Source: Campylobacteraceae bacterium
GTDB taxonomy: Bacteria; Campylobacterota; Campylobacteria; Campylobacterales; Sulfurovaceae
Reading direction: 5' to 3'
DNA: 64,000 nt
NCBI GenBank assembly: GCA_027065045.1
Contig: JAMOOX010000087.1
Span: forward strand, 30,912 to 94,911
Part shown: positions 6,290 through 21,400 of the stretch, piece by piece
How the letters are laid out: every line of letters begins with the position of its first letter
Position numbering within the stretch: position 1 is the first letter of the stretch
The notes under the pieces: model-generated
What the model was told of the DNA's origin: nothing
Database searches by the model: none
What the model saw: the letters and a program-made list of their open reading frames with translations, nothing else
Position numbers and translations under genes: made by a program

Positions 6290-7292
6290 TGATAAAATAT
6301 TGATGAATCTTGCTATCTATAAAGCATGGAAATATCAAGGTTTTACATATCCTAACCCTGCAGTGGGAGCTTTGGTTGTAGATGGTAAAGGTGAGATTGT
6401 AGCAATAGAGGCTCACCAAAAAGCAGGGACTTCTCACGCAGAAGTTTTGGCACTGCTTAGTGCTTATGAAGAGATAACGAATCAAAAACTTCCCATAGAT
6501 AAACTAAACCCAATTTTAGCACATAGATTTTTGACTACTTACTCTAACGATATATTCAAAGATTGTACAATTTATGTAACACTTGAACCATGTTCTCATA
6601 TTGGCAAAACTCCATCATGTGCATCACTACTTATTGATATTGGAATTAAAAGAGTGGTTGTATCTACAACAGACCCAATATCCTCTCATAGTGGTGGAAT
6701 TGATATAATGAAATATCAAGGGATTCAAGTTACAGTTGGGGTAGAAGAAGAGAAAGCAAAAGAATTAATTGAGCCATTTTTAATATGGCAAAGTAGAGCT
6801 TTCGTTCTATTTAAAATAGCTCAAACTTTTAATGGAAAGATAGGTGGTGGGTATCTAAGTTGTAAAAGCTCACTTACTCATACTCACAAACTACGAGAGG
6901 TTAGCAATAAAATATTAATTGGTGGAAATACAGTAAGAGTAGATAGACCAAGACTTGATTGTAGATTTTTAAAAGAGGCCATATCTCCTGATGTTTATAT
7001 ATATTCAAGTGCTGATAATTTTGATAGAGATACACCACTATTTAATATTCCTCATAGAACCGTAGAAATAGGAGATGATTTAAGCTTTTTAGATAATCCA
7101 TCATTTGTAATTATAGAGGGAGGAGAGGGAATGCTTAATGCCATCAAAGATAAAATAGATTGGCTTTTAATTTATCAAACATCTACTGTATCTACAAATG
7201 AAACAGATTATAAATTAAATCTCAAGACACAATCCTTACACCAACGAAAAATAGGAAAAGATGTAATGCTATGGAGCAAAGCCTTAAAATAG
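6276..7292 (+). CDS. ribD: bifunctional riboflavin biosynthesis deaminase/reductase
   Basis: CMP/dCMP deaminase zinc motifs HAEVLAL and TLEPCSHIGKTPSC, followed by a C-terminal reductase-like half. Confidence 0.85.
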   Translation: MSGFNDKILMNLAIYKAWKYQGFTYPNPAVGALVVDGKGEIVAIEAHQKAGTSHAEVLALLSAYEEITNQKLPIDKLNPILAHRFLTTYSNDIFKDCTIYVTLEPCSHIGKTPSCASLLIDIGIKRVVVSTTDPISSHSGGIDIMKYQGIQVTVGVEEEKAKELIEPFLIWQSRAFVLFKIAQTFNGKIGGGYLSCKSSLTHTHKLREVSNKILIGGNTVRVDRPRLDCRFLKEAISPDVYIYSSADNFDRDTPLFNIPHRTVEIGDDLSFLDNPSFVIIEGGEGMLNAIKDKIDWLLIYQTSTVSTNETDYKLNLKTQSLHQRKIGKDVMLWSKALK

Positions 7293-7304
7293 GAGCTTAA
7301 ATTT

Positions 7305-8618
7305 ATGACTATAGAACTTAAAAATATTGGAATGATTAAAGAGGCTATCGTTAAGATAGATGGATTAACTGTTATTGCTGGGGAGAATGATACAGGGAAG
7401 AGTACCGTTGGAAAAGTAATATTTTCTCTAATCAAAGCGAGTAGTAGATATAAAGAAGATTTAGAAGAAAATAAAGAAAAACAGATATTTGCAAAAATTG
7501 AACAAATCTATTTTAAATTAAGAAGAGAAATAGATTTTTCAAATAGATTAGACTTAAGAGAACAATTTTTTCCACCTATATTTAAAATGGATGTAGATAG
7601 ACAAGGTAGTATAGCTATTGAGAAAAGATTAGATTTTATATATACTTCAAATAATATATCTGAAAATTTTAATATTTTTAATAAAATAGAAAATGATTTA
7701 AATCAGTTATTAAAAATAATTAATACGGAAGATAAAATAGAGGATATGCAAAAAAGAGCATTTCAAAAAGTATTAATTTCTGAATTTAAAGGAAAAATTA
7801 CAAATCTTAACTCTACTAATAAATCAAAAATCAAAATATTTGATGGTCAAAACCCAATATTAAATGTAACTATTAGAGATAATAAAATTACAAAATTTGA
7901 AGTTTATGATAGATTATATTTTAATGATGCTACTTTTATTGAGAGTCCCATCTCTTTGCAACTCTCTGAACTTATAGATAATTCTAAAACTTATTTTGAA
8001 AATATAGAGAAACCTCTTAATAGGCAACCGAATATATCTCTACATATTAAAGATTTAAATGAAAAATTAAAAGAGTCATCTTATAATGAGGATTTATTGG
8101 ATTTAGATATAATATTTAGTGATTTAGATATAAATACTTTAAATAATAATTTATCTAATACTATGAATGGAAATATTAAATATCATAAAAAAACTAAAGA
8201 TTTTATCTATATATCAAATGGTAATAGTTTTTATAGCATTAATACTGCTACTGGAATTAAATCGTTTGGTATTATTCAAATGCTTCTAAAAAGTGGTTAT
8301 ATAAATAAAAATTCTCTTTTGATTTTAGATGAACCTGAAGTACATCTACATCCAAAATGGCAATTAAAATATGCTAAGTTTATAGTTAAGTTAGTTGAAA
8401 ATAATATTAATGTTTTGGTTACTTCTCATAGTCCATATATGATAGAGGCTTTAAAAAGATATTCTGAACTAGAAAATATAGAACAAAAAACAAACTTTTA
8501 TTTAGCAAAAGATGGATATATAGAGCATCAAGATAGTTTAGAGAATATTTTTGAAAAATTAGCTCTTCCTATGAGGGAGTTAAAAAAACTAAAAATGGCA
8601 AAATACTTAAATGATTAA
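7305..8618 (+). CDS. ABC-type (AAA_15/AAA_21-like, OLD/PtuA/AriA-class) ATPase
   Basis: Walker A GENDTGKST lies near the N-terminus. A roughly 300-aa Asn/Lys/Ile-rich helical insert follows, then a C-terminal LLILDEPEVHLHPKWQ...VTSHSPYM block (Walker B/D-loop/H-loop). An AGGAG RBS lies 12 nt after the ribD stop. Confidence 0.8.
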   Translation: MTIELKNIGMIKEAIVKIDGLTVIAGENDTGKSTVGKVIFSLIKASSRYKEDLEENKEKQIFAKIEQIYFKLRREIDFSNRLDLREQFFPPIFKMDVDRQGSIAIEKRLDFIYTSNNISENFNIFNKIENDLNQLLKIINTEDKIEDMQKRAFQKVLISEFKGKITNLNSTNKSKIKIFDGQNPILNVTIRDNKITKFEVYDRLYFNDATFIESPISLQLSELIDNSKTYFENIEKPLNRQPNISLHIKDLNEKLKESSYNEDLLDLDIIFSDLDINTLNNNLSNTMNGNIKYHKKTKDFIYISNGNSFYSINTATGIKSFGIIQMLLKSGYINKNSLLILDEPEVHLHPKWQLKYAKFIVKLVENNINVLVTSHSPYMIEALKRYSELENIEQKTNFYLAKDGYIEHQDSLENIFEKLALPMRELKKLKMAKYLND

Positions 8619-9141
8619 AAAAGCTCTTTCTCAATTAAGCTATGATAAGAAAAACAACATTATAGTTTGCAACTATATCAATACTTTTATTGATTTAGAT
8701 GATACAAAAGGCATTTTGAAAAAATCTCAATCCCCTAATTCTCCTGATATGTTGTATATTGATAAAAATAAAAAAGAAATATGGTTTGTAGAATTTAAAT
8801 CTTCTAATCATAAATCTTTAAATTCATGGAAAGAAAAATCTAAATTAAGAAAAAAGATTTTTTCAGGTCTTTTTTTAATTTATGAAATTTTTTGTAAAGA
8901 AAGTTGTCTTTATAAAGAGTATGATAAATTTTATTTTATTGCCTACAATAAAGAAAAGATAGAAAGTAGTGAAGATGAGCTTTTAGATATGTTTGAAGAT
9001 TTTTCTAGTCGTTCTATTGAGTTTGGATTAGAGGATTTAAAACCACAATTTGTAAAAGATATTTTTACAGAGGATTGTGATGAGTTAAAAAAACTTTTTC
9101 AAAAAAGATTTAATATTGAATTTATAAAGGAAACAAAATGA
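8611..9141 (+). CDS. hypothetical protein with candidate PD-(D/E)xK nuclease motif
   Basis: 176 aa. The motif SPD46[15 protein letters not shown]61-F-K63 looks like a beta-hairpin PD...ExK. The start overlaps the ATPase stop by 8 nt (ATGATTAA) and the stop overlaps the glyQ ATG (ATGA). Confidence 0.55.
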
Positions 9142-10031
9142 ATAAAAACACATTAACATTTAGTCAAATACTACTAAAACTACAACTATACTGGGCAGAC
9201 CAAGGGTGTAATATAGTACAACCCTACGATATACCAGCAGGTGCAGGGACATTTCACCCTGCTACACTTCTAAGAAGTTTAGATAGCAAACCATGGAGTA
9301 CAGCCTATGTAGCACCATCACGAAGACCAACTGATGGACGATATGGAGAAAACCCAAATAGATTAGGGGCATATTATCAATTTCAAGCACTTATCAAACC
9401 ATCTCCTGATAATATTCAAGAGCTTTATCTCAAGTCATTAGAGTATTTAGGACTTGATTTATCACAGCATGATATTAGATTTGTAGAGGATAATTGGGAA
9501 TCCCCAACTCTTGGTGCCTGGGGACTTGGTTGGGAAGTTTGGCTTGATGGTATGGAAGTTACTCAATTTACATATTTTCAACAGGTTGGAGGAATTGCTT
9601 GTAACCCAGTAGCAGTTGAGATTACTTATGGAACAGAGCGACTTGCTATGTATCTTCAAGGAGTTGAATCCGTATTTGATATTGTATGGAATAGACAAGG
9701 TGATAATATCACAACTTATGCCGATGTTCATAAAGAGAGTGAGTATGAGTTTAGTAAATATCACTTTGAAGTAGCCACAGTAGAGAAGCTATTTAAAGAT
9801 TTTGAAGATGCTTCTAATGAGTGTAGATTATGTCTTGAAAATGAGTTGCCACTACCTGCTTATGATGAGTGTATGAAAGCATCTCATTCCTTTAATGTCC
9901 TTGATGCTAGAAAAGCTATATCACAAGCTCAAAGACAAAATTATATACTTAAAGTTAGAGAACTCTCTATTGGTTGTGCTAAGCTTTATAAAGAACAAGA
10001 GGCTGAAAGAGAAAAAACCCAGATTTTATGA
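9138..10031 (+). CDS. glyQ: glycine--tRNA ligase alpha subunit
   Basis: 297 aa. [18 protein letters not shown]...[11 protein letters not shown] is highly characteristic of GlyQ. Confidence 0.97.
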
Positions 10032-10144
10032 AGTTTCTTCAAAACATAAAAATAGATTTTAAATCAAAGAGAATTCATAAAAATGAATATGATAAAATTA
10101 TTGACCCTTATAAACATATTGCAGAAAGAATTGCTAAAAAGTAA
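10028..10144 (+). CDS. possible 38-aa Lys-rich small protein
   Basis: My translation is [38 protein letters not shown]. The ATG overlaps the glyQ TGA (ATGA coupling). No recognisable family. Confidence 0.2.
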
Positions 10145-10410
10145 GAGGAGAGAATAAGTTACCTCACAGCAATTTATTTTCTCACTATAGTCATTATAAT
10201 AATTAGAGTAGCACATAGAAAAGAAATTTATTAAGCTTAAAAGCGAACAAGGTAATACTTACAATTATTCAAGCTTTTAATTTGCATAAAGTAAAATTAA
10301 AAGAATATAATAAAACAAGAAAAAATTAATTATTATAAATATAAATCATAATTTTAGTTAAAATTAAACAATATTAGTTTATACTTTAACTATAAAGTAA
10401 AGGATTAATA

Positions 10411-10644
10411 ATGACTGTAAGTGCAAAAGATTTAAGATTTAATATATCTATGCTTTTTGATGTATTGAGTAAAGGTGAAGAGATACTTATTACTTATAGA
10501 GGTAAAGCAAAGGCTAAACTTATCTCTTATAATAATTTAAAAGAGGAAAAAAGTGATGCCATTTTTGGATTATGAAAAGATAGAGATGAGGATGTAAATA
10601 GTATAGTAAAAAATATGAGAAAAGGTCGTAATTTTGATATATGA
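10411..10644 (+). pseudogene. Phd/YefM-type antitoxin (VapB-like) interrupted by an in-frame TGA
   Basis: My translation is MTVSAKDLRFNISMLFDVLSKGEEILITYRGKAKAKLISYNNLKEEKSDAIFGL*KDRDEDVNSIVKNMRKGRNFDI. The stop at 10573-10575 sits where related antitoxins have FG(L/M)WKD, consistent with TGG->TGA. Confidence 0.6.
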
Positions 10645-10817
10645 TAAACTACTTGATACAGATGTAATTATTTGGTATCTAAGAGGTAATCAAAATGCTT
10701 ATGACCTTATTCATAATATTGGTGAGTTTGCTATATTATGGTATGACACTTTATACAGCTAATGATAAACATTATAAAGTGATTAAAGAGTTAGATATTT
10801 TTGTATTTAGACCATAA
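10641..10817 (+). pseudogene. PIN-domain VapC toxin remnant (frameshifted, internally deleted)
   Basis: ATG at 10641 reads MINYLIQM*. The +2 frame reads DKLLDTDVIIWYLRGNQNAYDLIHNIGEFAIL (PIN N-terminus). A third frame reads YTANDKHYKVIKELDIFVFRP* (PIN C-terminus). The middle of the domain is missing. Confidence 0.55.
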
Positions 10818-10830
10818 AGAAAGGAACAGT

Positions 10831-11547
10831 ATGAAACTCCAAGAGATATACAACAAATTAGACGAAATCAGTCCATTTGACCTACAAGAAAGATGGGATA
10901 ATAGTGGATTAATTATTGGAAATATGGATAGTAATATAGAAAAAATTATATTATCTATCGATATTGATGAAGATTTACTTCTCAAAAGTGATAAAGATGT
11001 GCTTTTTATAGTCCATCATCCTTTGATATTTGATGGGCTTAAATCTTTGGATTTTGCTAAATATCCTGCAAAGTTAATTAAAATTATGATAGAAAAAAAT
11101 CAATCTTTGATTGCTATGCATACAAATTTTGATAAAACTCATCTTAATCGATATGTTTTTGAAGAGGTTTTGGATTTAGAGATAGCTAGTTTTGAAGATT
11201 TTTTATCTGTTTCTAATAAAGTTTTTACTAGAAGAGAGCTTATATCTTTGGTTAAAAGTAGGTTTGATATTGATAAGGTTAGAGTTGTTAATCCCAAAGA
11301 GAAGATACGAGGAGTTGCCTTAACTACGGGAGCAGGGGCCTCTTTGATGGATAGAGTGAGTGTGGATTGTTTGCTTACTGGGGATATAAAATATCATGAT
11401 GCAATCAAGGCAAAATCGCAAGATTTGATGATGATTGATATTGGACATTATGAGAGTGAGCAGTTTTTTGGGGAGGTGCTAAAAATGGAGTTGGAAAATT
11501 TACCTATTTTAGCTATAATTTCAAATTCGCAAAACCCATTTCATTAG
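10831..11547 (+). CDS. Nif3-like dinuclear metal centre protein (YbgI family)
   Basis: MKLQEIYNKLDEISPF..., with HHPLIF, HTNFD and GHYESE motifs. I prefer the ATG at 10831 over the track start at 10801. Confidence 0.85.
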   Translation: MKLQEIYNKLDEISPFDLQERWDNSGLIIGNMDSNIEKIILSIDIDEDLLLKSDKDVLFIVHHPLIFDGLKSLDFAKYPAKLIKIMIEKNQSLIAMHTNFDKTHLNRYVFEEVLDLEIASFEDFLSVSNKVFTRRELISLVKSRFDIDKVRVVNPKEKIRGVALTTGAGASLMDRVSVDCLLTGDIKYHDAIKAKSQDLMMIDIGHYESEQFFGEVLKMELENLPILAIISNSQNPFH

Positions 11548-11565
11548 AGTGCTAAAGGATAAGAA

Positions 11566-12285
11566 TTGAATAATGATTTAACAGAGTTAATAAAGTTATC
11601 AGATATAGATAAATCTATTGATAGCTTTTCACCAAAAATAGAGTCTGCAAACAAAAAGCTAGAAAAAGCTAAAGCTAAATTAGATAGTATTGTAGAAAAT
11701 AGAGATGCAACTAATCAATTAATAGAAGATAACAAAAGCAAAGTATCTGAATTTGAAAATCAGTTAGAGATGCTAAATCAACAATTAAAAGATATTACAA
11801 AAAAGAATAAAATTGTAACTACTGAAAAAGAGTTAAAGGCACTTACTTTAGAAGAGGAAATTGCAAAAGAGAAGATGACTTTTGCAAATGAAGAGATAGA
11901 AAAACTTCAAGATATTAATGAAAAAAAATCTATTGAATTAGATGAGTTTCAAGAAGAGATTGATAGAGAGAGTGCATTAGTTGATGCTATTATTCAAGAA
12001 GTAGCAGAGACAACTTCTGATATTGATAGTAAAAAGAGTGCTTTGTATGGCAAAAGAGAAGAGGTAACAGTAGGAATTAAACCAAATGTTCTTCAATTCT
12101 ATGAGAGAATTAGAATGTGGGCTAGAAATAGTGCTATTGTACCTATGAGAAAACAGGCTTGTTATGGTTGTTTTATGAAATTAAATGACAAGACTTATGC
12201 AGATATAATCAAAGCACAAGAGATTGTAACTTGTCCTCATTGTGATAGAATTATATATATGGAACCAGTAGAGGAAGAAGAGTAA
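11566..12285 (+). CDS. coiled-coil C4 zinc-ribbon protein (COG1579/HP0958-like)
   Basis: Long coiled coil followed by CYGCF...CPHCDRIIY. The pairing with the Nif3 gene is conserved. Confidence 0.75.
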   Translation: MNNDLTELIKLSDIDKSIDSFSPKIESANKKLEKAKAKLDSIVENRDATNQLIEDNKSKVSEFENQLEMLNQQLKDITKKNKIVTTEKELKALTLEEEIAKEKMTFANEEIEKLQDINEKKSIELDEFQEEIDRESALVDAIIQEVAETTSDIDSKKSALYGKREEVTVGIKPNVLQFYERIRMWARNSAIVPMRKQACYGCFMKLNDKTYADIIKAQEIVTCPHCDRIIYMEPVEEEE

Positions 12286-12288
12286 TCT

Positions 12289-13452
12289 TTGTTTAATATA
12301 ATATATACTATTGTTATCTTGATAGTATATATTATCTCTATCGCTTTTATTATAATATTCTCATTTAAAGATAAATATAAACAATCCCTACCATCACGAT
12401 TTTTTTTACGAAACAATCCTAAACTAAAACCAAATGGTATATGGTTTCACTCCTGTTCTTTAGGAGAGGCAAAAGCAATCAAACCACTTATTGATAAATT
12501 TAATATAGATGATATTCGTCTAACTACTACTACAAATACAGGATTTGGTGAAATATCTAAATATAGCTCACAGAGTCGTTATCTTCCTTTTGAGATACTA
12601 TTACCATTTTGGATAAAACCTCAAAAAACTCTTGTAATTATGGAGGCTGAATATTGGTATATGCTATTTTTATTATCTAAACTTTATGGTGCTAAGATAG
12701 TCTTAATTAATGCTAGAATGAGTGATAACTCTTATAAAAATTATCTAAGATTTAGATGGTTTTATCGTAAAATATTTGCATTTGTAGATAAGATTTATGC
12801 TCAAAGTGATATAGATAGAGATAGATTAGAGACTCTTGGTGCTACAAATATAGAGGTAATAGGTAATATCAAACTCTATAAATTGCCACAAACTACAAGA
12901 GAACTAGATAAACCAAACTCACTTATAGTTACTGGGGCAAGTACTCACAGTGGAGAGGATATTTTAATATTAGAGGCATTTAAAAAATTTAAAGAAAAAA
13001 ATACAAATGCTAAACTTATTTTAGTACCTCGTCATAATTTTGATAAAATTGTAGATTTAGCTAATAATTTTGCTAATATAAATCAGTTATCATTTTCACA
13101 ATATTCACAAGATAAAAGCCTAAATAGTGATATAATAGTTGTAGATATGTTGGGAGAACTTATTAATATATACTCTATTAGTGATATTGTTATTATTGGT
13201 GGTTCATTTATAGATGGGATAGGTGGGCATAATGTAGCAGAGGCATCTCAATTTGGTTGTAAGATAATATCAGGTAAATACTATTTTAACCAAAAAGATA
13301 TATATCGTTCTGTTAGTGGGATTAAAATTATAGATAAAAGTATGCTATATCAGACTCTTTTAGATTATCAAAATTTATCATCTACCAAAGTATTAGTTAA
13401 GTGTGATATAGAACCTATCTTATCTACTATTGATGATTATATCCATAGATAG
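12289..13452 (+). CDS. waaA: 3-deoxy-D-manno-octulosonic acid (Kdo) transferase
   Basis: N-terminal TM helix, WFHSCSLGEAKAIKPLI motif, GT30-like C-terminal half (GGSF..GGHN). Confidence 0.85.
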   Translation: MFNIIYTIVILIVYIISIAFIIIFSFKDKYKQSLPSRFFLRNNPKLKPNGIWFHSCSLGEAKAIKPLIDKFNIDDIRLTTTTNTGFGEISKYSSQSRYLPFEILLPFWIKPQKTLVIMEAEYWYMLFLLSKLYGAKIVLINARMSDNSYKNYLRFRWFYRKIFAFVDKIYAQSDIDRDRLETLGATNIEVIGNIKLYKLPQTTRELDKPNSLIVTGASTHSGEDILILEAFKKFKEKNTNAKLILVPRHNFDKIVDLANNFANINQLSFSQYSQDKSLNSDIIVVDMLGELINIYSISDIVIIGGSFIDGIGGHNVAEASQFGCKIISGKYYFNQKDIYRSVSGIKIIDKSMLYQTLLDYQNLSSTKVLVKCDIEPILSTIDDYIHR

Positions 13453-14335
13453 AAAAATTAGATTTACCACCTTTTTTAGCCATATACATCGCTTTATCTG
13501 CTAGTTTTAATAACAAATCTATATCTAAAGTATCTTGGATATATCTACTAATTCCTATACTAGCAGATACTTTTAGTATATTTTCATTGTATATAAGAGG
13601 TATAGAGGTGGCATCTATAATCTTTTGTGCTAATATGTTGAGATTATCTATATCTACTATATCTTTGATAATTATAACAAACTCATCTCCTCCTAATCTA
13701 GCAAATATATCATCTTTTCTTATCATTTTTGATATATTAGATACGACCCATTTTAATATTTCATCTCCTGCTTTATGTCCATAATTATCATTAATTGGTT
13801 TAAAATTATCTAAATCTATAAAAAATAGAGAAAAAGTAGATTTATTATCTCTAAGTTGAGCTAAACTTTGATTAAAAGAGAGGCGATTTTTTATTTTTGT
13901 TAGTTCGTCATAGTGTGCTAGATTATATAAAATCTTTTTATCTCTATCTTTCTCTATTTTCTCTTTTAAACTAGCAGTAACTTCTAATAGTTTTTCATTA
14001 AACTTATCAATATCAATTGGTTTAGATATAAATCCATTTGCTCCATAATTTAATGCCTCCATCAAATTATTTTTATCTCCAAATGCAGAAGTGATAATAA
14101 TCATTTGTTCTTTGTCAATTGATTTTATCTGTTTAATCATATCAATACCATTTAACTTTGGCATATTTAAATCTGTAACAATAATATCAGGTTTTTTAGA
14201 TTTATATATCTCTATACCCTCTTCACCATTAAAGGCTTGATAAAACTCTTTGACCTCATCAGAGAGATAAAATTTCATATACTCTTGTGTATCTTTATCA
14301 TCCTCTACATATAAAAGTGTAAAATCTTGTAACAT
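13427..14335 (-). CDS. response regulator / diguanylate cyclase (REC-GGDEF)
   Basis: The receiver has DIIVTDLNMPKLNG. The GGDEF domain has an intact RLGGDEF and an RKDD (RxxD) I-site 5 aa upstream. Confidence 0.9.
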   Translation of the reverse strand: MLQDFTLLYVEDDKDTQEYMKFYLSDEVKEFYQAFNGEEGIEIYKSKKPDIIVTDLNMPKLNGIDMIKQIKSIDKEQMIIITSAFGDKNNLMEALNYGANGFISKPIDIDKFNEKLLEVTASLKEKIEKDRDKKILYNLAHYDELTKIKNRLSFNQSLAQLRDNKSTFSLFFIDLDNFKPINDNYGHKAGDEILKWVVSNISKMIRKDDIFARLGGDEFVIIIKDIVDIDNLNILAQKIIDATSIPLIYNENILKVSASIGISRYIQDTLDIDLLLKLADKAMYMAKKGGKSNFSIYGYNHQ

Positions 14336-14336
14336 A

Positions 14337-15956
14337 CTATATACTCCTATTTAAAACTATTTCAAATGTTGTAATGCCATCTATACTAGATGCTTTTATG
14401 CTTCCTCTCATATGCTCTTCTATAATTATTTTTGTCATATAAAGTCCTACTCCTGTACCATTTTTTTCATTTTTTGTAGAAAAATATGGGTCAAATATTC
14501 GCTCAATTATATCATTTGGTATCCCACCTGCATTATCTTTGATATATAATTTAATATGCTTCTCTTCTATTTTATAATAGATATTAATCAACGCATTTTC
14601 TATTTTATTTTCTATCAAGGCATCTTTTGCATTATTGATAATATTAATAATAGATTGCCCTAGCTTATTGGGATACCCATCAACAAAACAGCCATCACAC
14701 TCACTTACTTGTAGTTTTATACTATTTTTTGTAAGTATAGGAGATACTATTGATATAGAATTATTTATGCTATCATGAAGATTAAATATTTTTTTATCTA
14801 CCTCTGGTTTGAAAAAGTTTCTAAATTCATCAATAGTATCAGACATATATTTAATCTGCTTTTGTGATGATTGTTCAAAATAATCCATAATATTATCATT
14901 TATTTTACCTCTTTTATACTTCAATATAATTGTTTGGCTAATTAATGATAGATTATTTAGAGGTTGTCTCCATTGATGGGCTATCATACTTATCATCTCT
15001 CCCATTTGAGCCAATCTTGATTGTTGTAACATTAACAGTTGTTGTTCTCTATTTTTGGCTACCTCTTGCTTGATTGTATCTTTTAAATATTTTTCTCTTG
15101 TTTTATTCTCTTCAAATAAAACACCTGATATTAAAGCCAAAGATATATGGACAAGTATAAAAAAATTGATATTAATAATATTATCTACCATAGAGTGAAT
15201 AGCAAAAGCACCCACTCCAATATATACACTATAAGTTGATACCATAGCTATTACCACAGGTAGGGCAACACCATATAATAGCCCCCTCCTAGAGATTATT
15301 AATATTACAGCAGGTATAGTAAAAGTAAGTAGTAGTGATAAATTCTCTAAAATAATCTTCAACTCTAAAATATATATAAAAATAGTAAAGAGGAGTATAT
15401 ATAATAGATACTCATATATATTTATCTTTTTATAATGTATTAGTATCAATAATATAAATGGAGTAAATAACAATTGCCCCATTATATTACCAAACCACCA
15501 TGAAAAAAGAGATGATAAATAAGAAATATTTTCTAACTCATTGCTAATATATAAAACATAATTACCCAAAATAGAACTAAATGGTTGTAGTATAAAAATA
15601 ATAATCATAACTAACCCCAAAACATCTCTTAGAGTTAATAGATTTTTATGTAAATTATATCTATTAAATATAACCACTCCAATAACTGCCTCTAAAGCAT
15701 TGATAATAGAGATAAAAAAAGATGGAATAAAATCCAACGAACAACTAGATGCTAATATAAATTGTCCTATAAATATACCTAACCATACTCTTTTACCCCA
15801 AAATATAGCTGAAGCTAATGCTAATCCCTCTGATGCAAATATTACAATTGTAACAATAGTATCTTCTTGTAATATAGAAAAACTAACTTTTCCTAGCAAA
15901 AAATATCCGATGGATATAAATATAGTTAAAATTAAGTACTCTCTATTATATTTCAA
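14337..15956 (-). CDS. membrane sensor histidine kinase (MASE1-like N-terminal multi-TM domain)
   Basis: About 8 TM helices, H-box IAHQWRQPLN, and ATPase N/G boxes (NNAKDA, GTGVGLYM). Adjacent to the REC-GGDEF gene, which starts 2 nt downstream on the same strand. Confidence 0.85.
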   Translation of the reverse strand: MKYNREYLILTIFISIGYFLLGKVSFSILQEDTIVTIVIFASEGLALASAIFWGKRVWLGIFIGQFILASSCSLDFIPSFFISIINALEAVIGVVIFNRYNLHKNLLTLRDVLGLVMIIIFILQPFSSILGNYVLYISNELENISYLSSLFSWWFGNIMGQLLFTPFILLILIHYKKINIYEYLLYILLFTIFIYILELKIILENLSLLLTFTIPAVILIISRRGLLYGVALPVVIAMVSTYSVYIGVGAFAIHSMVDNIININFFILVHISLALISGVLFEENKTREKYLKDTIKQEVAKNREQQLLMLQQSRLAQMGEMISMIAHQWRQPLNNLSLISQTIILKYKRGKINDNIMDYFEQSSQKQIKYMSDTIDEFRNFFKPEVDKKIFNLHDSINNSISIVSPILTKNSIKLQVSECDGCFVDGYPNKLGQSIINIINNAKDALIENKIENALINIYYKIEEKHIKLYIKDNAGGIPNDIIERIFDPYFSTKNEKNGTGVGLYMTKIIIEEHMRGSIKASSIDGITTFEIVLNRSI

Positions 15957-16735: not shown

Positions 16736-18076
16736 TTAATAATACTCTACCACTTTTTCCATACTCAAAGCCCCATCAAATAGAGTCTTCTCATCAAATA
16801 CCTTGGCAATTAGTTGTAATCCTATTGGCATACTATTACTATCTTTTGCCACTGGGATTGATATAGCTGGTAATCCTGCTAAATTTACACCAATAGTGTA
16901 CATATCACTCTTATACATCTCTAATGGGTCTTTACTTGAACCAATTTTAGGTGCTGTTGTAGGTGCTACTGGAGATAATATCAAATCAGCCTCTTGGAAT
17001 ATCGCATTAAACTCATCTCTTATTAAGTGTCTTACTTTTTGGGCTTTTAGATAATAAGCATCATAATATCCTGATGATAATACAAAGTTTCCTAAAAGTA
17101 TTCTTCTTTTTACTTCATCTCCAAACCCTTTGCTTCTTGTTTGGATAAATGTATCAGATAAATTACTTCCCTCTTCTCTACTTCCATATCTAATTCCATC
17201 ATATCTAGCAAGGTTTGTAGTAGCTTCAGCAGTAGCCACAATATAATAAGTTGCTATATCATATTTTGTATTTGTCATATTTTTATGGATTATTGTATGC
17301 CCTGCCTCTTGAAGCTTAGATAGAGTATCATTAAATGCTTTTTGTATCTCCTCATCTGCTTCGCTAATATAGTTATCAATTACAGCAATAGTTAATTTAC
17401 GATTACTATCAAGATTTGGATATATCTTCTTATCATCTCTATTAGCACTTGTAGAGTCTTTCTCATCATAGCCTACAATAGCATCATAGAGTATAGCACT
17501 ATCTTCAACATTTTGTGTAATTGGTCCAATCTGGTCAAGGCTTGAAGAGTAGGCACTAAGCCCATAACGGCTCACTCTTCCATAAGTTGGTTTCATTCCT
17601 ACACAACCACAATATGAAGCAGGTTGTCTAATACTCCCACCTGTATCACTTCCCAAAGCACAAATAGCTATCCCACCTGCTACAGCAGCAGCACTTCCAC
17701 CACTACTCCCCCCAGGTGTATGAGCCAAATTATGAGGATTTAGAGTCTTACCATAAAAACTACTCTCTGTTGTAGAACCCATAGCAAATTCGTCCATATT
17801 TGCCCTACCAAATGGAGCTAATCCATTTAATTTAAGGTTTTTAATCGCAGTTGCTTCATAAGGGGCAATATAGCCTTGAAGGATTTTAGAGGCACTTGTT
17901 ACACTCCACCCCTCTACTTGAATATTATCTTTGATAAGTACCGGCACACCATCACCACTACTATTAAAATCTATATAAGCATTTAATCCACCATCAATAG
18001 CTTTTTGCTTCATCTCCTCTTTTAATTTATCTAATTCATCTTGATTTTTTGTTAATGCCTCTTTTAAGGTAATCAT
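16736..18076 (-). CDS. gatA: Asp-tRNA(Asn)/Glu-tRNA(Gln) amidotransferase subunit A
   Basis: Amidase signature [12 protein letters not shown]...[12 protein letters not shown]. The MITLKEAL start at 18076 is preferred over the track start at 18100. Confidence 0.93.
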
Positions 18077-18261
18077 ATATAATCCTCTTACAAATTTCAT
18101 TTATAAGGATTATACAAAAGTCTAATTTATAAGGTGTTGAAATATCTAATATTTTAAAGAGTTATTTACAATCAATTATATATCTTATATATACGAGGCG
18201 TTGAATATACACTAAATTTATGCTATACTACCAACCTGTAAATGTAAATATAGCCAAAACA

Positions 18262-18605
18262 GTTTGCGAACTTTTTAGCTAAGTTTATTTTAAGCTAAAA
18301 TCACGATATACCCCTAAAAATGGGAGTTTAGTAGATTTTACCCAATTTTCAAAAAGTTCGCAAACCTAAGCTTTTTGAAAAGCACCAAGGAGGTTTGCGA
18401 ACTTTAAGTTTATTTTAAGATAAAACCCCCCGTATTTACGGCTTATGGGAGCTTAAGAGAACCTAAAAGTTCGTAAATTAACTTTTTGGACTACTACCCA
18501 AAGAGGTTTGCGAACTTTTTTGACCCCTCAAACCCCCTAAAAATGGGAGATTTAAGAAAAAACCAAGCTAAGTTTGTATATAATTTGACTTAGGTTTGCG
18601 AACTT
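18262..18605. repeat. tandem, degenerate ~90-130-bp repeat units anchored by the 12-mer GTTTGCGAACTT
   Basis: The exact 12-mer occurs at 18262, 18393, 18506 and 18594 (+). Its reverse complement AAGTTCGCAAAC is at 18354, and a degenerate copy AAGTTCGTAAAT is at 18467. The units also share AAGTTTATTTTAAG-TAAAA and CCCCTAAAAATGGGAG blocks. No ORF is present. Confidence 0.8.
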
Positions 18606-18684
18606 TTTTGCATTGTTCCATAAAATCGTACTGTTTTGTAGATTAATTTTTTTGGAAATTTAATAGTTTTATGATTATAAGGCT

Positions 18685-18866
18685 ATTTATATACCTATGA
18701 CCCGAATTAGGGGATTGAAACAAATCTTCTTCAGAGGCTAAAACACTATTGTTAGATTTATATACCTATGACCCGAATTAGGGGATTGAAACTTGTCTTT
18801 CCAAGTAAGCATACCATCTTTTCGGAAAGATTTATATACCTATGACCCGAATTAGGGGATTGAAAC
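18685..18866 (+). CRISPR. orphan CRISPR mini-array (3 identical 37-bp repeats, 2 spacers)
   Basis: The repeat ATTTATATACCTATGACCCGAATTAGGGGATTGAAAC occurs at 18685-18721, 18756-18792 and 18830-18866. The 34-bp and 37-bp spacers are unrelated to each other. An AT-rich leader-like stretch lies upstream. A 4th repeat, if present at about 18902-18938, is strongly degenerate. Confidence 0.8.
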
Positions 18867-19057
18867 CCTATTCTGAAAGTCAAATACTTAAACTCTTTAT
18901 TAGACTTCTTGCAAAACTTGGGAACTGATGCTTTAGCTTCAGTAGGTATTTAGTGAGGCTGAAGCCAAAGAGCAATAATCATTAAGTCATTGGTATTGAA
19001 AGCTTACTTGCCTATTAGGAGTGGGTGCTAAATGGTTACAATATTTTTAACATAAAA

Positions 19058-19447
19058 TTAAAACTCTTGTCTAATCTTATTTAATACTCTATCAAATGCT
19101 CCATCTTCATCATCTTTAAAATCACTTTGGACTTTATAATAACAATTTAATCCATTTGATATAGTAACTCTAATATATCCATTAAAATCACTTCCTACAC
19201 TTTTGACAATTGGATTATTACAATCTCTAATATGATATTTAAGTAGTTGGACTCTATATTTACAACTTTTATTATCTTCAAATCTAAAAGCATTTTGAAG
19301 TCTTTTTTTATCGCTATCTTTTATTAACATATCATAGCTAAGACAATTTAGAGTCTCTTTCTTGGTGCAAAATTTATCATAGATTGGGAAATCTTCTTGA
19401 CAACTTATAAATATAATAGATGTTAATATAAATATAATATTTCTCAT
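19058..19447 (-). CDS. hypothetical lipoprotein
   Basis: Signal peptide with a lipobox (IIFISC). No recognisable domain. Confidence 0.6.
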   Translation of the reverse strand: MRNIIFILTSIIFISCQEDFPIYDKFCTKKETLNCLSYDMLIKDSDKKRLQNAFRFEDNKSCKYRVQLLKYHIRDCNNPIVKSVGSDFNGYIRVTISNGLNCYYKVQSDFKDDEDGAFDRVLNKIRQEF

Positions 19448-20196
19448 TTTTTATCTTTTTTTAGTGATGCTATAAACTTATCTCTAATAGATATTGGAAT
19501 AAAAGATAGAAGCTTGATAATAATAAAAAATCTTTTTGGGAATTTATAACATCTTTTACTATTTTCAATAGCATATATAATTCTTTTTATTCCTTGTTGA
19601 GTAGTTAAAATAAATGGCATTTGAAAGTTGTTTTTATCTGTCATTGGAGATTTGATAAATCCTGGTAAGATATTGATTACTTCAATTGCATTTGGTTTGA
19701 GTAGGGTTCTTAATCCTTGTGCATAAGCATTTAAAGCCCTCTTAGAGCTACTATAAGCAATAGAACTTGGCATTGTAATAATTGAGGCTAAAGATGATAT
19801 TAAAACTATTTTAGAGCCTTGATTGAGAGAGGGGATTAAATGCTCTAATAAGGCATGGACGGATAAGAAATTTACATCTACTACTTTTTTTAAATCTTTA
19901 AAAGAGCTATATCCATTATGGGAATGTCCTAATGATATACCTGCATTTGCAATTATCATATCTATTATTGGCTCTTTTTGAGCTATCTCTTGAGTTATTT
20001 TTTGTAATTTATCAAAATCACTTACATCAACTTGATAAATTTCAACACTATTTGCACCAAGTAGTTTTAGTTCTTTTGATAGAGAAGATAATTTATCCTC
20101 TCTTCTTGATAATAAATATAAATTATTATTAGGTGCATAATACCTGCTTAATTCTCTACCTATACCAGAACTCGCACCTGTGATAATTATTATCAT
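19444..20196 (-). CDS. SDR family oxidoreductase
   Basis: TGASSGIGRE Rossmann motif and YSSSK catalytic motif. Confidence 0.85.
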   Translation of the reverse strand: MIIIITGASSGIGRELSRYYAPNNNLYLLSRREDKLSSLSKELKLLGANSVEIYQVDVSDFDKLQKITQEIAQKEPIIDMIIANAGISLGHSHNGYSSFKDLKKVVDVNFLSVHALLEHLIPSLNQGSKIVLISSLASIITMPSSIAYSSSKRALNAYAQGLRTLLKPNAIEVINILPGFIKSPMTDKNNFQMPFILTTQQGIKRIIYAIENSKRCYKFPKRFFIIIKLLSFIPISIRDKFIASLKKDKK

Positions 20197-20233
20197 TTTT
20201 TTATATCCAATAAAATGGTTTTAATAAACTTTT

Positions 20234-20307
20234 GGTGGGATTCTCCCACCCTACATAAAATATAATTATCATTTTAAAAGCAACTCGTAGGGTGGGTGAA
20301 ACCCACC
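20234..20307. repeat. inverted pair of GC-rich hairpin elements (REP-like)
   Basis: GGTGGGATTCTCCCACCCTAC at 20234-20254 and GTAGGGTGGGTGAAACCCACC at 20287-20307 are inverted copies of one 21-nt motif. Each is itself a 6-7-bp hairpin, and they stand out as GC-rich in an AT-rich spacer. Confidence 0.6.
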
Positions 20308-20326
20308 ATTATTAAATAATTATATA

Positions 20327-21400
20327 TTATCTTGATACATAATCAGCAATTAATGAACCAATCTCACTTGTAGCACAAACCTCTTTTGCATCATAAGCAC
20401 TAATATCACCAGTTCTATAACCCTCACTCAATACCTTATGAATAGCATCATCAATTCTTTGAGATGCTTCATCTTCACCTAAAGCATACTTAAGCATCAT
20501 AGATACACTTGAGATTGTGGCTAATGGATTGGCTATTCCTTGTCCTGCAATATCTGGGGCAGAACCGTGGATTGGCTCAAATAGTCCTACTTTATTACCT
20601 GTACTTGCACTTGGTAATAGTCCAATAGAACCACTTAGCATACTAGCAGCATCACTTAAAATATCTCCAAAAATATTTCCTGTTAAAATAACATCAAACT
20701 GTTTTGGTTCTCTAATAAGTTGCATAGCAGCATTATCTACATACATATGAGTAAGTTCAACTTCAGGATAATCTTTGGCTACATCTTCTACAATATCTCT
20801 CCAAAATTGACTCACTTCTAGTACATTTGCTTTATCAACAGAACATACTCTTTTATCTCTTTTCATAGCTATATCAAATGCTACTTTGGCAATTCTTACT
20901 ACCTCTTCTCTTGTATAAATCATAGTATTGTATGCTTTATCTTCTAAGTTTTCTCTAGGTTCTCCAAAATATATTCCACCAGTAAGTTCTCTAACTACCA
21001 TTAAATCTACACCTTGGATAACGCTTGGTTTTAAAGTAGAAGCATTGATAAGTTCATCATATACCATAGCAGGGCGTAAGTTTGCATAAGTCCCCATAGC
21101 TTTTCTAAGTCCTAAAAGTCCAGTTTCAGGGCGTAAATGTCTCTCTAAATTATCCCATTTTGGCCCACCAATTGCACCAAATAAAACAGCATCACATTTT
21201 TGCACACCTTTGATAGTCTCATCAGGTAGAGGTACGCCTGTCTCATCAATAGCGATACCACCTAGTAAAAACTCTTCATAATTTACTTCAAAGTTCATTT
21301 TTGTAGATACTGCATCTAATACTTTTACAGCCTCTTCAATAATCTCAGGGCCTATCCCATCCCCTTTGATAATACCTATTTTATATATTTTATTACCCAT
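20327..21400 (-). CDS. leuB: 3-isopropylmalate dehydrogenase
   Basis: 357 aa with typical LeuB sequence ([26 protein letters not shown]). Confidence 0.95.

Follow-up and report, generated by a model that had tools for sequence, protein, structure and literature searches.

A six-site leader found next to RT-Cas1/Cas2 modules of several phyla precedes a CRISPR mini-array in a Campylobacteraceae bacterium

A block of short repeated units in front of a three-repeat CRISPR array in a Campylobacteraceae bacterium is almost certainly the leader of this mini-array, one of a conserved family of leaders that accompany RT-Cas1/Cas2 modules for spacer acquisition. In the stretch of 64,000 nucleotides that was analysed, referred to as the window, the complete CRISPR leader (~431 bp) occupies 18254..18684 on the + strand and aligns over its full length with 15 other leaders. 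An earlier note had placed the block upstream of the CRISPR leader; it is the leader itself, bounded by a conserved CCAAAACA box before the first site and by a GCT at the leader–repeat junction (18682..18684, + strand) that is kept in most leaders aligned on repeat 1. All 15 aligned homologues begin directly after the stop codon of RT-cas1 or cas2 and end at repeat 1. The window leader is non-coding, and its homologues are cas-proximal and lie upstream of repeat 1, as is required of a CRISPR leader; the observation that no ORF fits the block is borne out by the lack of any ORF of at least 40 aa within 18101-18757.

The 12-mer GTTTGCGAACTT is found on the + strand at 18262, 18393, 18506, and 18594 and on the − strand at 18354-18365, which amounts to five matches in the window against 0.14 expected from shuffled sequence, and a degenerate inverted copy, AAGTTCGTAAAT, covers 18467-18478. 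A sequence search therefore agrees with the earlier count of four direct copies and two inverted ones, of which one is exact and the other degenerate. The spacings of 131, 113, and 88 bp between the direct copies are as described, the proposed 15-bp stem (18262-18276 / 18351-18365) is 100% complementary, and both shared blocks, TAAGTTTATTTTAAG(C/A)TAAAA and CCCCTAAAAATGGGAG(T/A)TT, are real. Every copy is built on a 10-bp near-palindromic core, RTTTRCRAAC, which in the window reads GTTTGCGAAC. Site F1, with the extended form cAGTTTGCGAACTTTTT, lies at 18262..18271 (+ strand) and is the first element past the cas stop codon in cas-linked loci. It is followed by the inverted site R1 at 18356..18365 (− strand; GTTCGCAAAC on the + strand), by F2 at 18393..18402 (+ strand), whose core starts 37 bp past that of R1 (18356 to 18393), by the degenerate inverted site R2 at 18469..18478 (− strand; GTTCGTAAAT on the + strand), by F3 at 18506..18515 (+ strand), again 37 bp from core start to core start (18469 to 18506), and by F4 at 18594..18603 (+ strand), which starts 91 bp before repeat 1 (18594 to 18685). 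Three small palindromes on the + strand are interspersed: HP1 (CCCCTAAAAATGGG, 18311..18324) between F1 and R1, HP2 (CCGTATTTACGG, 18430..18441) between F2 and R2, and HP3 (CCCCCTAAAAATGGG, 18533..18547) between F3 and F4. A conserved box, ACTGTTTTGTAG (ACTGTTAAGT in relatives), is located at 18630..18641 (+ strand), at or just past the transcription start, which is predicted ~52 nt ahead of repeat 1. Across 16 aligned leaders, the element measures ~450 bp, and its conservation peaks are the six cores, three small GC-stem palindromes, the ACTGTTAAGT box, and the GCT. Palindromes resembling HP1, with a GC stem and an A+T loop, are present in other Campylobacterota leaders and not evident in distant phyla. 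The class to which the window leader belongs, termed here the RT-Cas1-type six-site leader, is defined in the present analysis by six RTTTRCRAAC-type sites ordered F-R-F-R-F-F, by an R-to-F spacing of 37±1 bp, and by a last site that precedes repeat 1 by about 91 bp, or by 11 or 22 bp more; the window leader has this order, this spacing, and the 91-bp distance.

The same arrangement exists a second time in the genome. In a search of all 2.06 Mb, the 12-mer was found at three places only; five of its ten exact copies belong to the window leader, four to a cluster at C127:32420-32752, and the last stands alone on contig C30. In the C127 cluster, sites follow the F-R-F-R-F-F order and orientation of the window leader, and the cluster sits between the stop codon of cas2 and an array with a different repeat, GTTTCCCTGCTTATTTGTGGGGAGGTTATTTTAAGAC, which runs on into contig C56; upstream of it are genes for a Cmr set of type III-B, for an RT-Cas1 fusion of 705 aa, and for Cas2. 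This succession of cas2, cluster, and array identifies the units as a leader common to two arrays with unrelated repeats. The perceived echo of the CRISPR repeat within the units is not upheld, since identical units precede arrays whose repeats are unrelated. The suggestion of a fossil or alternative repeat array fails as well: spacings of 131, 113, and 88 bp in mixed orientations provide no regular spacer-like period, and the units, placed before two unrelated repeat families, do not track repeat sequence. The link to CRISPR, which would have been lost had the 12-mer been scattered genome-wide, stands. Along the C127 locus, the Cmr operon (L009:8412-9920 and 12320-13043) contains a CorA-like membrane protein as well as an MntA-like nucleotidyltransferase followed by a 137-aa gene, the latter two between a Cas10-like gene and the next Cmr gene. 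The solo site, AAAAAGTTCGCAAACC at C30:4014-4025, is followed by a ATTTTTGGGG palindrome and falls within a gap of 137 bp, with an L,D-transpeptidase-like gene on one side and an ORF of 76 aa without a family match on the other; a leader that has since been lost may have left it behind.

A wider survey revealed the same layout far beyond this genome. Among 60 relatives, a cluster of the exact 12-mer was found only in G029, the others being at chance level; G029 carries the motif in two CRISPR leaders, one after cas1-cas2 and the other after a cas1-type gene, where the array repeat is orthologous to that of the window. A scan of ~186,000 species genomes for the inverted pair yielded 86 loci, about 35 of them in Campylobacterota (Sulfurovum and vent MAGs, Nitratifractor, Wolinella, and Campylobacter concisus), and these Campylobacterota loci hold 4-6 sites directly after cas1 or cas2 and directly before the array. 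In at least 15 Campylobacterota loci the layout starts directly past the RT-cas1 or cas2 stop codon. When ORFs were clustered for loci with enough flank, a ~740-aa RT-Cas1 and Cas2 emerged as the sole common genes, in the orders RT-cas1, cas2, leader or cas2, RT-cas1, leader; the RT-Cas1 fusions adjoining leaders measure 705-770 aa. An RT-Cas1 protein search, which is not biased by the motif, gave matches in 36 of 401 Campylobacterota genomes. The nearest RT-Cas1 clades from this search have GTTTGCGAAC (GCGAAC) clusters, and other Campylobacterota clades display the same architecture with ATTTTCGAAC, TTTCTCGGAC, or ATTTTCCAAC as the core.

Metagenomes were searched with an RT-Cas1 profile, which returned 80 loci comprising full RT-Cas1 fusions and Cas1-only relatives, and the 10-mer with the most copies no farther than 550 bp from each array was then determined de novo. 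Ten-mers and a skeleton regular expression were used, an 8-mer search with one mismatch being too noisy in A+T-rich DNA. In most of about 24 RT-Cas1 loci, 4-7 copies of the de novo 10-mer were found in both orientations on the leader side, and the 10-mer was almost always a variant of TTTGCGAA or TTTTCGAA. RT-Cas1 proteins with this layout share as little as 25-33% identity with the query and derive from gut, rumen, and other samples. In about 21 Cas1-only loci, the same procedure mostly returned 2-3 copies of unrelated words (two loci reach 4), and the median number of TTT[GT]CGAA copies was 4 in RT-Cas1 leaders versus 1 in Cas1-only leaders (Mann-Whitney p=7e-6). Leaders of Cas1-only relatives hold 0-3 motif copies; where the motif is kept, its 1-3 copies all fall on the leader side. 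The nearest non-RT Cas1 relatives (L211:4400-4600, L212, and L228) exhibit a single TTCGCAAA-N27-TTTGCGAA pair at about -113..-166, and the six-site leader may descend from such a single R-N27-F pair. In L211, cas1 is followed by two further ORFs, the last of which is presumably Cas4-like, as judged by eye. L060, a MAG of the Brocadiaceae, and L061, an unclassified bin from the deep sea, have the same site order, and between-site similarity is absent. Two metagenomic loci (L187 and L188) encode fusions of 1,020-1,050 aa, probably Cas6-RT-Cas1, adjoining arrays, with 7-12 TTTTCGAA-type sites per locus.

When leaders are aligned on repeat 1, site positions agree within 1-2 bp across clades. The R-to-F spacing is 37±1 bp in all clades examined, and the 27 bp between the two cores are not conserved. 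In no fewer than 19 leaders of different clades, F4 precedes repeat 1 by 87-92 bp, and in others by ~101-104 bp or ~113-115 bp. The upstream sites move as a block: F3, R2, F2, and R1 are found 189, 226, 302, and 339 bp before repeat 1 in one set of leaders and 178, 215, 291, and 327 bp before it in a second set, a shift of ~11 bp or roughly one helical turn. The R-to-F distance was also considered as a repeat-length ruler, which finds no support within the small range of repeat lengths (35-37 nt), as it stays at 37±1 bp regardless of repeat length.

Such constancy makes it scarcely tenable that the block is a neutral relic without present function, be it a pile-up of MITE-like or duplicated elements or a decayed repeat array. 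Certain features are suggestive of such an origin: the F...R pairs resemble terminal inverted repeats that bound units of 80-100 bp, the three units are reminiscent of an old tandem triplication, and one solo copy occupies the non-coding gap on C30. Like MITEs and REP/BIME elements, moreover, the units are short, have inverted ends, and cluster in intergenic DNA. In contrast to such elements, they are not dispersed, lack target-site duplications, and always occur in a CRISPR leader in fixed order, the 12-mer being limited to two leaders and one solo site in 2.06 Mb. Order, orientation, and spacing have been kept across phyla where the intervening sequence has not, and the units are unlike both repeat families that they precede. 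The earlier proposal of a MITE pile-up is contradicted by this lack of dispersed copies and by the conservation of order and spacing across phyla. A sigma-54 promoter, an integron attC site, a dif/Xer site, a Tn7/CAST end, and a PurR-like operator (GCAAAC/GTTTGC half-sites) were likewise considered and rejected, as none of them fits the consensus or the context.

Inverted copies at constant distances might instead act as RNA or single-stranded DNA hairpins (R1:F2, R2:F3, or long F:R stems), either in a leader RNA to which the RT domain binds or as terminators insulating the cas operon from the array. The region folds far better than shuffled sequence (z = -6.3), it holds perfect inverted repeats of 15-20 bp, some F2:R2 pairs display G:U-compatible changes, and a promoter-like site on the + strand at 18201-18229 (TTGAAT-17-TATACT with a TG extension) is situated just upstream of F1, from where it could drive read-through into the leader, to judge by its sequence. 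In cas-linked leaders, a cas gene takes the place of this promoter-like site. A low folding energy is, however, the trivial outcome of inverted copies of one motif, and RNAalifold, applied to 16 leaders, returned only the trivial R1:F2 and F1:R2 helices with a covariation term of -0.49 kcal/mol. F3 and F4, the best-kept copies, lack a partner in inverted orientation; in L036, L111, and L097, R2 has degenerated without a compensating change; complementarity ends at the 10-bp core in distant leaders; and the constant 27-nt 'loop' has no conserved sequence. The sites also lie upstream of a conserved -10 box, and a terminator scan of the window leader detected no terminator-like site; in the C127 region the scan gave three sites, two of them on the minus strand over one small palindrome. 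As a Rfam scan of 17000-20500 at E≤1 returned no match and pair-specific covariation is absent, the structured small RNAs envisaged in the earlier note find no support, and hairpins in general are a quite improbable explanation of the layout.

The last site is placed with respect to a likely array promoter. A putative -10 box, TAAAAT, is found at 18621..18626 on the + strand (-64..-59 from repeat 1), at the same position as the extended -10 element TGTGATATAAT of the type-B leaders L149, L144, and L146, and a box at -64..-59 occurs in leaders of both type A (GCGAAC) and type B (TTCGAAC). Since the F4 core ends 17 bp upstream of this box in the window, and 16-17 bp upstream of it across leaders of both types, F4 takes the -35 position. 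Matches in a generic promoter scan were not above shuffle expectation in either leader. It is conceivable that a dedicated transcription factor, and not the integrase, uses the sites as operators and switches the array promoter on or off, the upstream copies serving as cooperative or looping sites. The distance from F4 to the -10 box, kept in type A and type B leaders including those with a perfect extended -10 element, suits a transcription factor equally well; the near-palindromic core is typical of dimeric regulators; and work on the V. vulnificus RT-Cas1 found leader promoter strength to be inversely related to acquisition. Yet no DNA-binding gene is common to the loci, RT-Cas1 and Cas2 alone being universal, and the genome has no copies of the site upstream of its cas operons. 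A transcription factor also leaves the base-pair-exact distances of the five upstream sites to repeat 1 unexplained, and it has to accommodate a genome in which two motif types coexist, each next to a separate RT-Cas1. A dedicated regulator is for these reasons considered unlikely. Among the four options offered before, regulator-binding sites controlling the array come closest nonetheless: the units behave like position-fixed sites of a protein-binding type, the last at the -35 position of a likely promoter, and the fossil array, the MITE, and the small RNA are not supported.

What reads the sites can be approached through their sequence variants. T2-4, C6, A8, and A9 of the core are kept in 94-96 of 96 sites. 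Position 7 is either G or A and is the same in all six copies of a given leader, the unpaired F3 and F4 included (column-wise permutation p<1e-4, a figure inflated by relatedness), and this concerted behaviour points to one reader for all copies. The core variants GCGAAC, TTCGAAC, and TCGGAC track the RT-Cas1 clade, and motif type requires 5 changes on the RT-Cas1 tree compared with 10.2 in shuffles. A Campylobacter-family genome, G111, possesses two RT-Cas1 loci with different variants, each leader beside its own RT-Cas1, and constitutes a natural test case of site specificity; its GCGAAC leader (G111:C33, L129) carries ATTTGCGAAC and its TTCGAAC leader (G111:C9, L149) carries ATTTTCGAAC. From these patterns we infer that the reader travels with the module. 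RT-Cas1 and Cas2 being the sole genes common to all loci, elimination leaves them as the candidate readers, and the presence of sites in Cas1-only relatives favours the Cas1/Cas2 part over the RT domain. Against a module-specific reading, leader and cas genes are linked, and co-inheritance alone could give the clade pattern; strict specificity is further weakened by G029, whose two leaders differ at one tolerated position only (GCGAAC vs GCAAAC).

The sites might be read not by a Cas protein but by a nucleoid or architectural protein of the host, such as HU or another host factor. Elsewhere, such work is done by IHF (types I-E and I-F), by Pyrococcus histones, and by HU in a type III-A system, and the Campylobacterota sites are flanked by A+T tracts. 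The same core, however, occurs in Campylobacterota, Brocadiaceae, and gut and rumen bacteria, always with RT-Cas1, and two motif variants coexist within one genome (G111). The present genome, which is 99.9% complete, encodes a single HU/IHF-family protein (PF00216) and no IHF pair. HU is not known to have sequence specificity of this kind, and a host reader is regarded as very improbable.

The reading preferred here is that the sites are docking sites for the RT-Cas1-Cas2 integrase of the module which overlap the array promoter, a proposal drawn from sequence comparison to which an even chance of being correct is assigned. The sites would be of an 'arm type', most likely bound by the Cas1/Cas2 part of RT-Cas1-Cas2, and the six together would fold the ~430 bp leader into a nucleoprotein complex that would place the integrase on the leader–repeat junction. 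New spacers would then enter at the first repeat without IHF, which is absent from this genome, and, with F4 at the -35 position, spacer uptake and transcription of the array could be coupled through site occupancy. Phage lambda attP and the ends of Tn7 and Mu have many oriented copies of a short site, placed at fixed spacing, which assemble a large nucleoprotein complex that delivers catalysis to a distant core. The likeness of these arm-type arrays to the six-site leader is proposed as an analogy only, given that the machinery is not homologous and that Cas1 is not known to have a separate arm-binding domain. In its fullest form, which is put forward tentatively and is somewhat less probable than not, the proposal holds that RT-Cas1-Cas2 of several phyla employ a self-sufficient leader 'integrasome' in which two R-N27-F pairs and two direct sites are read by Cas1/Cas2 and spaced to the base pair from the junction, the last site doubles as a -35 operator of the array promoter, and the variants act as address codes separating the arrays of two systems.

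Position-fixed leader motifs are well known from types I-E, I-F, II-A, I-A, and I-D and from archaeal systems. The type I-E and I-F leaders of E. coli and P. aeruginosa combine IHF sites with upstream integrase-contact motifs and inverted repeats, and the six-site leader resembles them in being non-coding and in having short motifs at fixed distances from the first repeat. In those systems the motifs are helically phased and fold the leader so that Cas1-Cas2 integrates at the leader–repeat junction. Despite this likeness, several differences exist: the six-site leader has six copies of a single 10-bp motif, spread over ~350 bp with orientations that follow a set pattern, the genome encodes no pair of the IHF type, and the family goes together with RT-Cas1 and type III systems. 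The RT-Cas1/Cas2 modules of Marinomonas mediterranea, Thiomicrospira (Cas6-RT-Cas1; PDB 7kft/7kfu), and Vibrio vulnificus (type III-D) employ the same protein partner. In contrast to these published modules, the RT-Cas1 of the present genome is without the YADD motif. Published work on RT-Cas1 has used 49-163 bp of leader or whole leaders, and no repeated leader motif is reported, including in the Thiomicrospira and V. vulnificus papers, both of which use leaders. When the literature, full texts included, was searched for leader motifs of RT-Cas1 systems and for the letters of the motif, primers and unrelated matches were all that was retrieved. The six-site layout, widespread next to RT-Cas1 in several phyla, appears to be undescribed.

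In the window itself, the leader is intact and adaptation genes are missing from its side. The mini-array (18685..18866, + strand) consists of three identical 37-nt repeats, ATTTATATACCTATGACCCGAATTAGGGGATTGAAAC, at 18685-18721, 18756-18792, and 18830-18866, which enclose two spacers at 18722-18755 (34 nt) and 18793-18829 (37 nt); the repeat is unique in the genome, and neither spacer has an exact match among viral contigs. Instead of RT-cas1 and cas2, which adjoin the C127 leader of the same genome, the upstream neighbour is the housekeeping gene gatA (16736..18100, − strand; TIGR00132, 574.8 bits). Past the last repeat, ~190 bp of non-coding DNA (18867-19057) separate the array from the next gene (19058-19447, − strand), whose 129-aa product has no family match. 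Remote arrays with a six-site leader are also found in L115 and L063.

In relatives, the repeat family of the mini-array, which ends in GGGGATTGAAAC, lies beside cas2-RT-cas1 together with a second effector set of type III. Contig C10 of the present genome holds homologues of this second effector set, with neither adaptation genes nor an array alongside. This cluster (C10:~6300-14900; L117:4290-12942), homologous to the genes that flank family-1 arrays in relatives and without an adjoining cas1, cas2, or array, encodes a Csx7-like RAMP protein, a TIGR04423 protein, a TIGR03986 RAMP protein, and a DxTHG/Csx1-like protein, and a Fic/Doc-like gene is embedded in it at L117:7296-8099. Because the repeat family adjoins homologous effectors together with cas2-RT-cas1 in relatives, the mini-array is best read as a remote array of the C10-type system that has kept its leader intact and has lost its own cas2/RT-cas1. 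With two spacers only and no adjacent cas genes, this copy may be inactive. The RT-Cas1 on C127, the sole one left, may serve the mini-array in trans, a possibility raised by the exact 12-mer common to both leaders. This protein (C127:29998-32112; L009:16999-19116) differs from a 69%-identical Sulfurovum homologue by a 40-aa in-frame deletion which removes the reverse-transcriptase catalytic motif FVRYADDFV and leaves the Cas1 domain intact, so that the capture of RNA-derived spacers has, judging from the gene sequence, probably been lost in this genome.

How Cas1-Cas2 selects the first repeat has been solved for few systems, namely by IHF in types I-E and I-F, by a leader-anchoring sequence in type II-A, and by histones or HU in a few others. 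RT-Cas1 systems record RNA and underlie transcriptional recording tools, and their leader element is not defined in the literature examined; the present analysis contributes a conserved six-site architecture, its fixed geometry, and the occurrence of two motif types in one genome. The length of leader that is needed to move RT-Cas1 recorders between hosts could be shown by the six-site result. For the organism itself, the 'orphan' array of the window is reclassified as a remote array with an intact RT-Cas1-type leader. For the family at large, if the fullest form of the docking proposal is true, GCGAAC, TTCGAAC, and TCGGAC would be address codes by which two RT-Cas1 systems in one cell write separate arrays.
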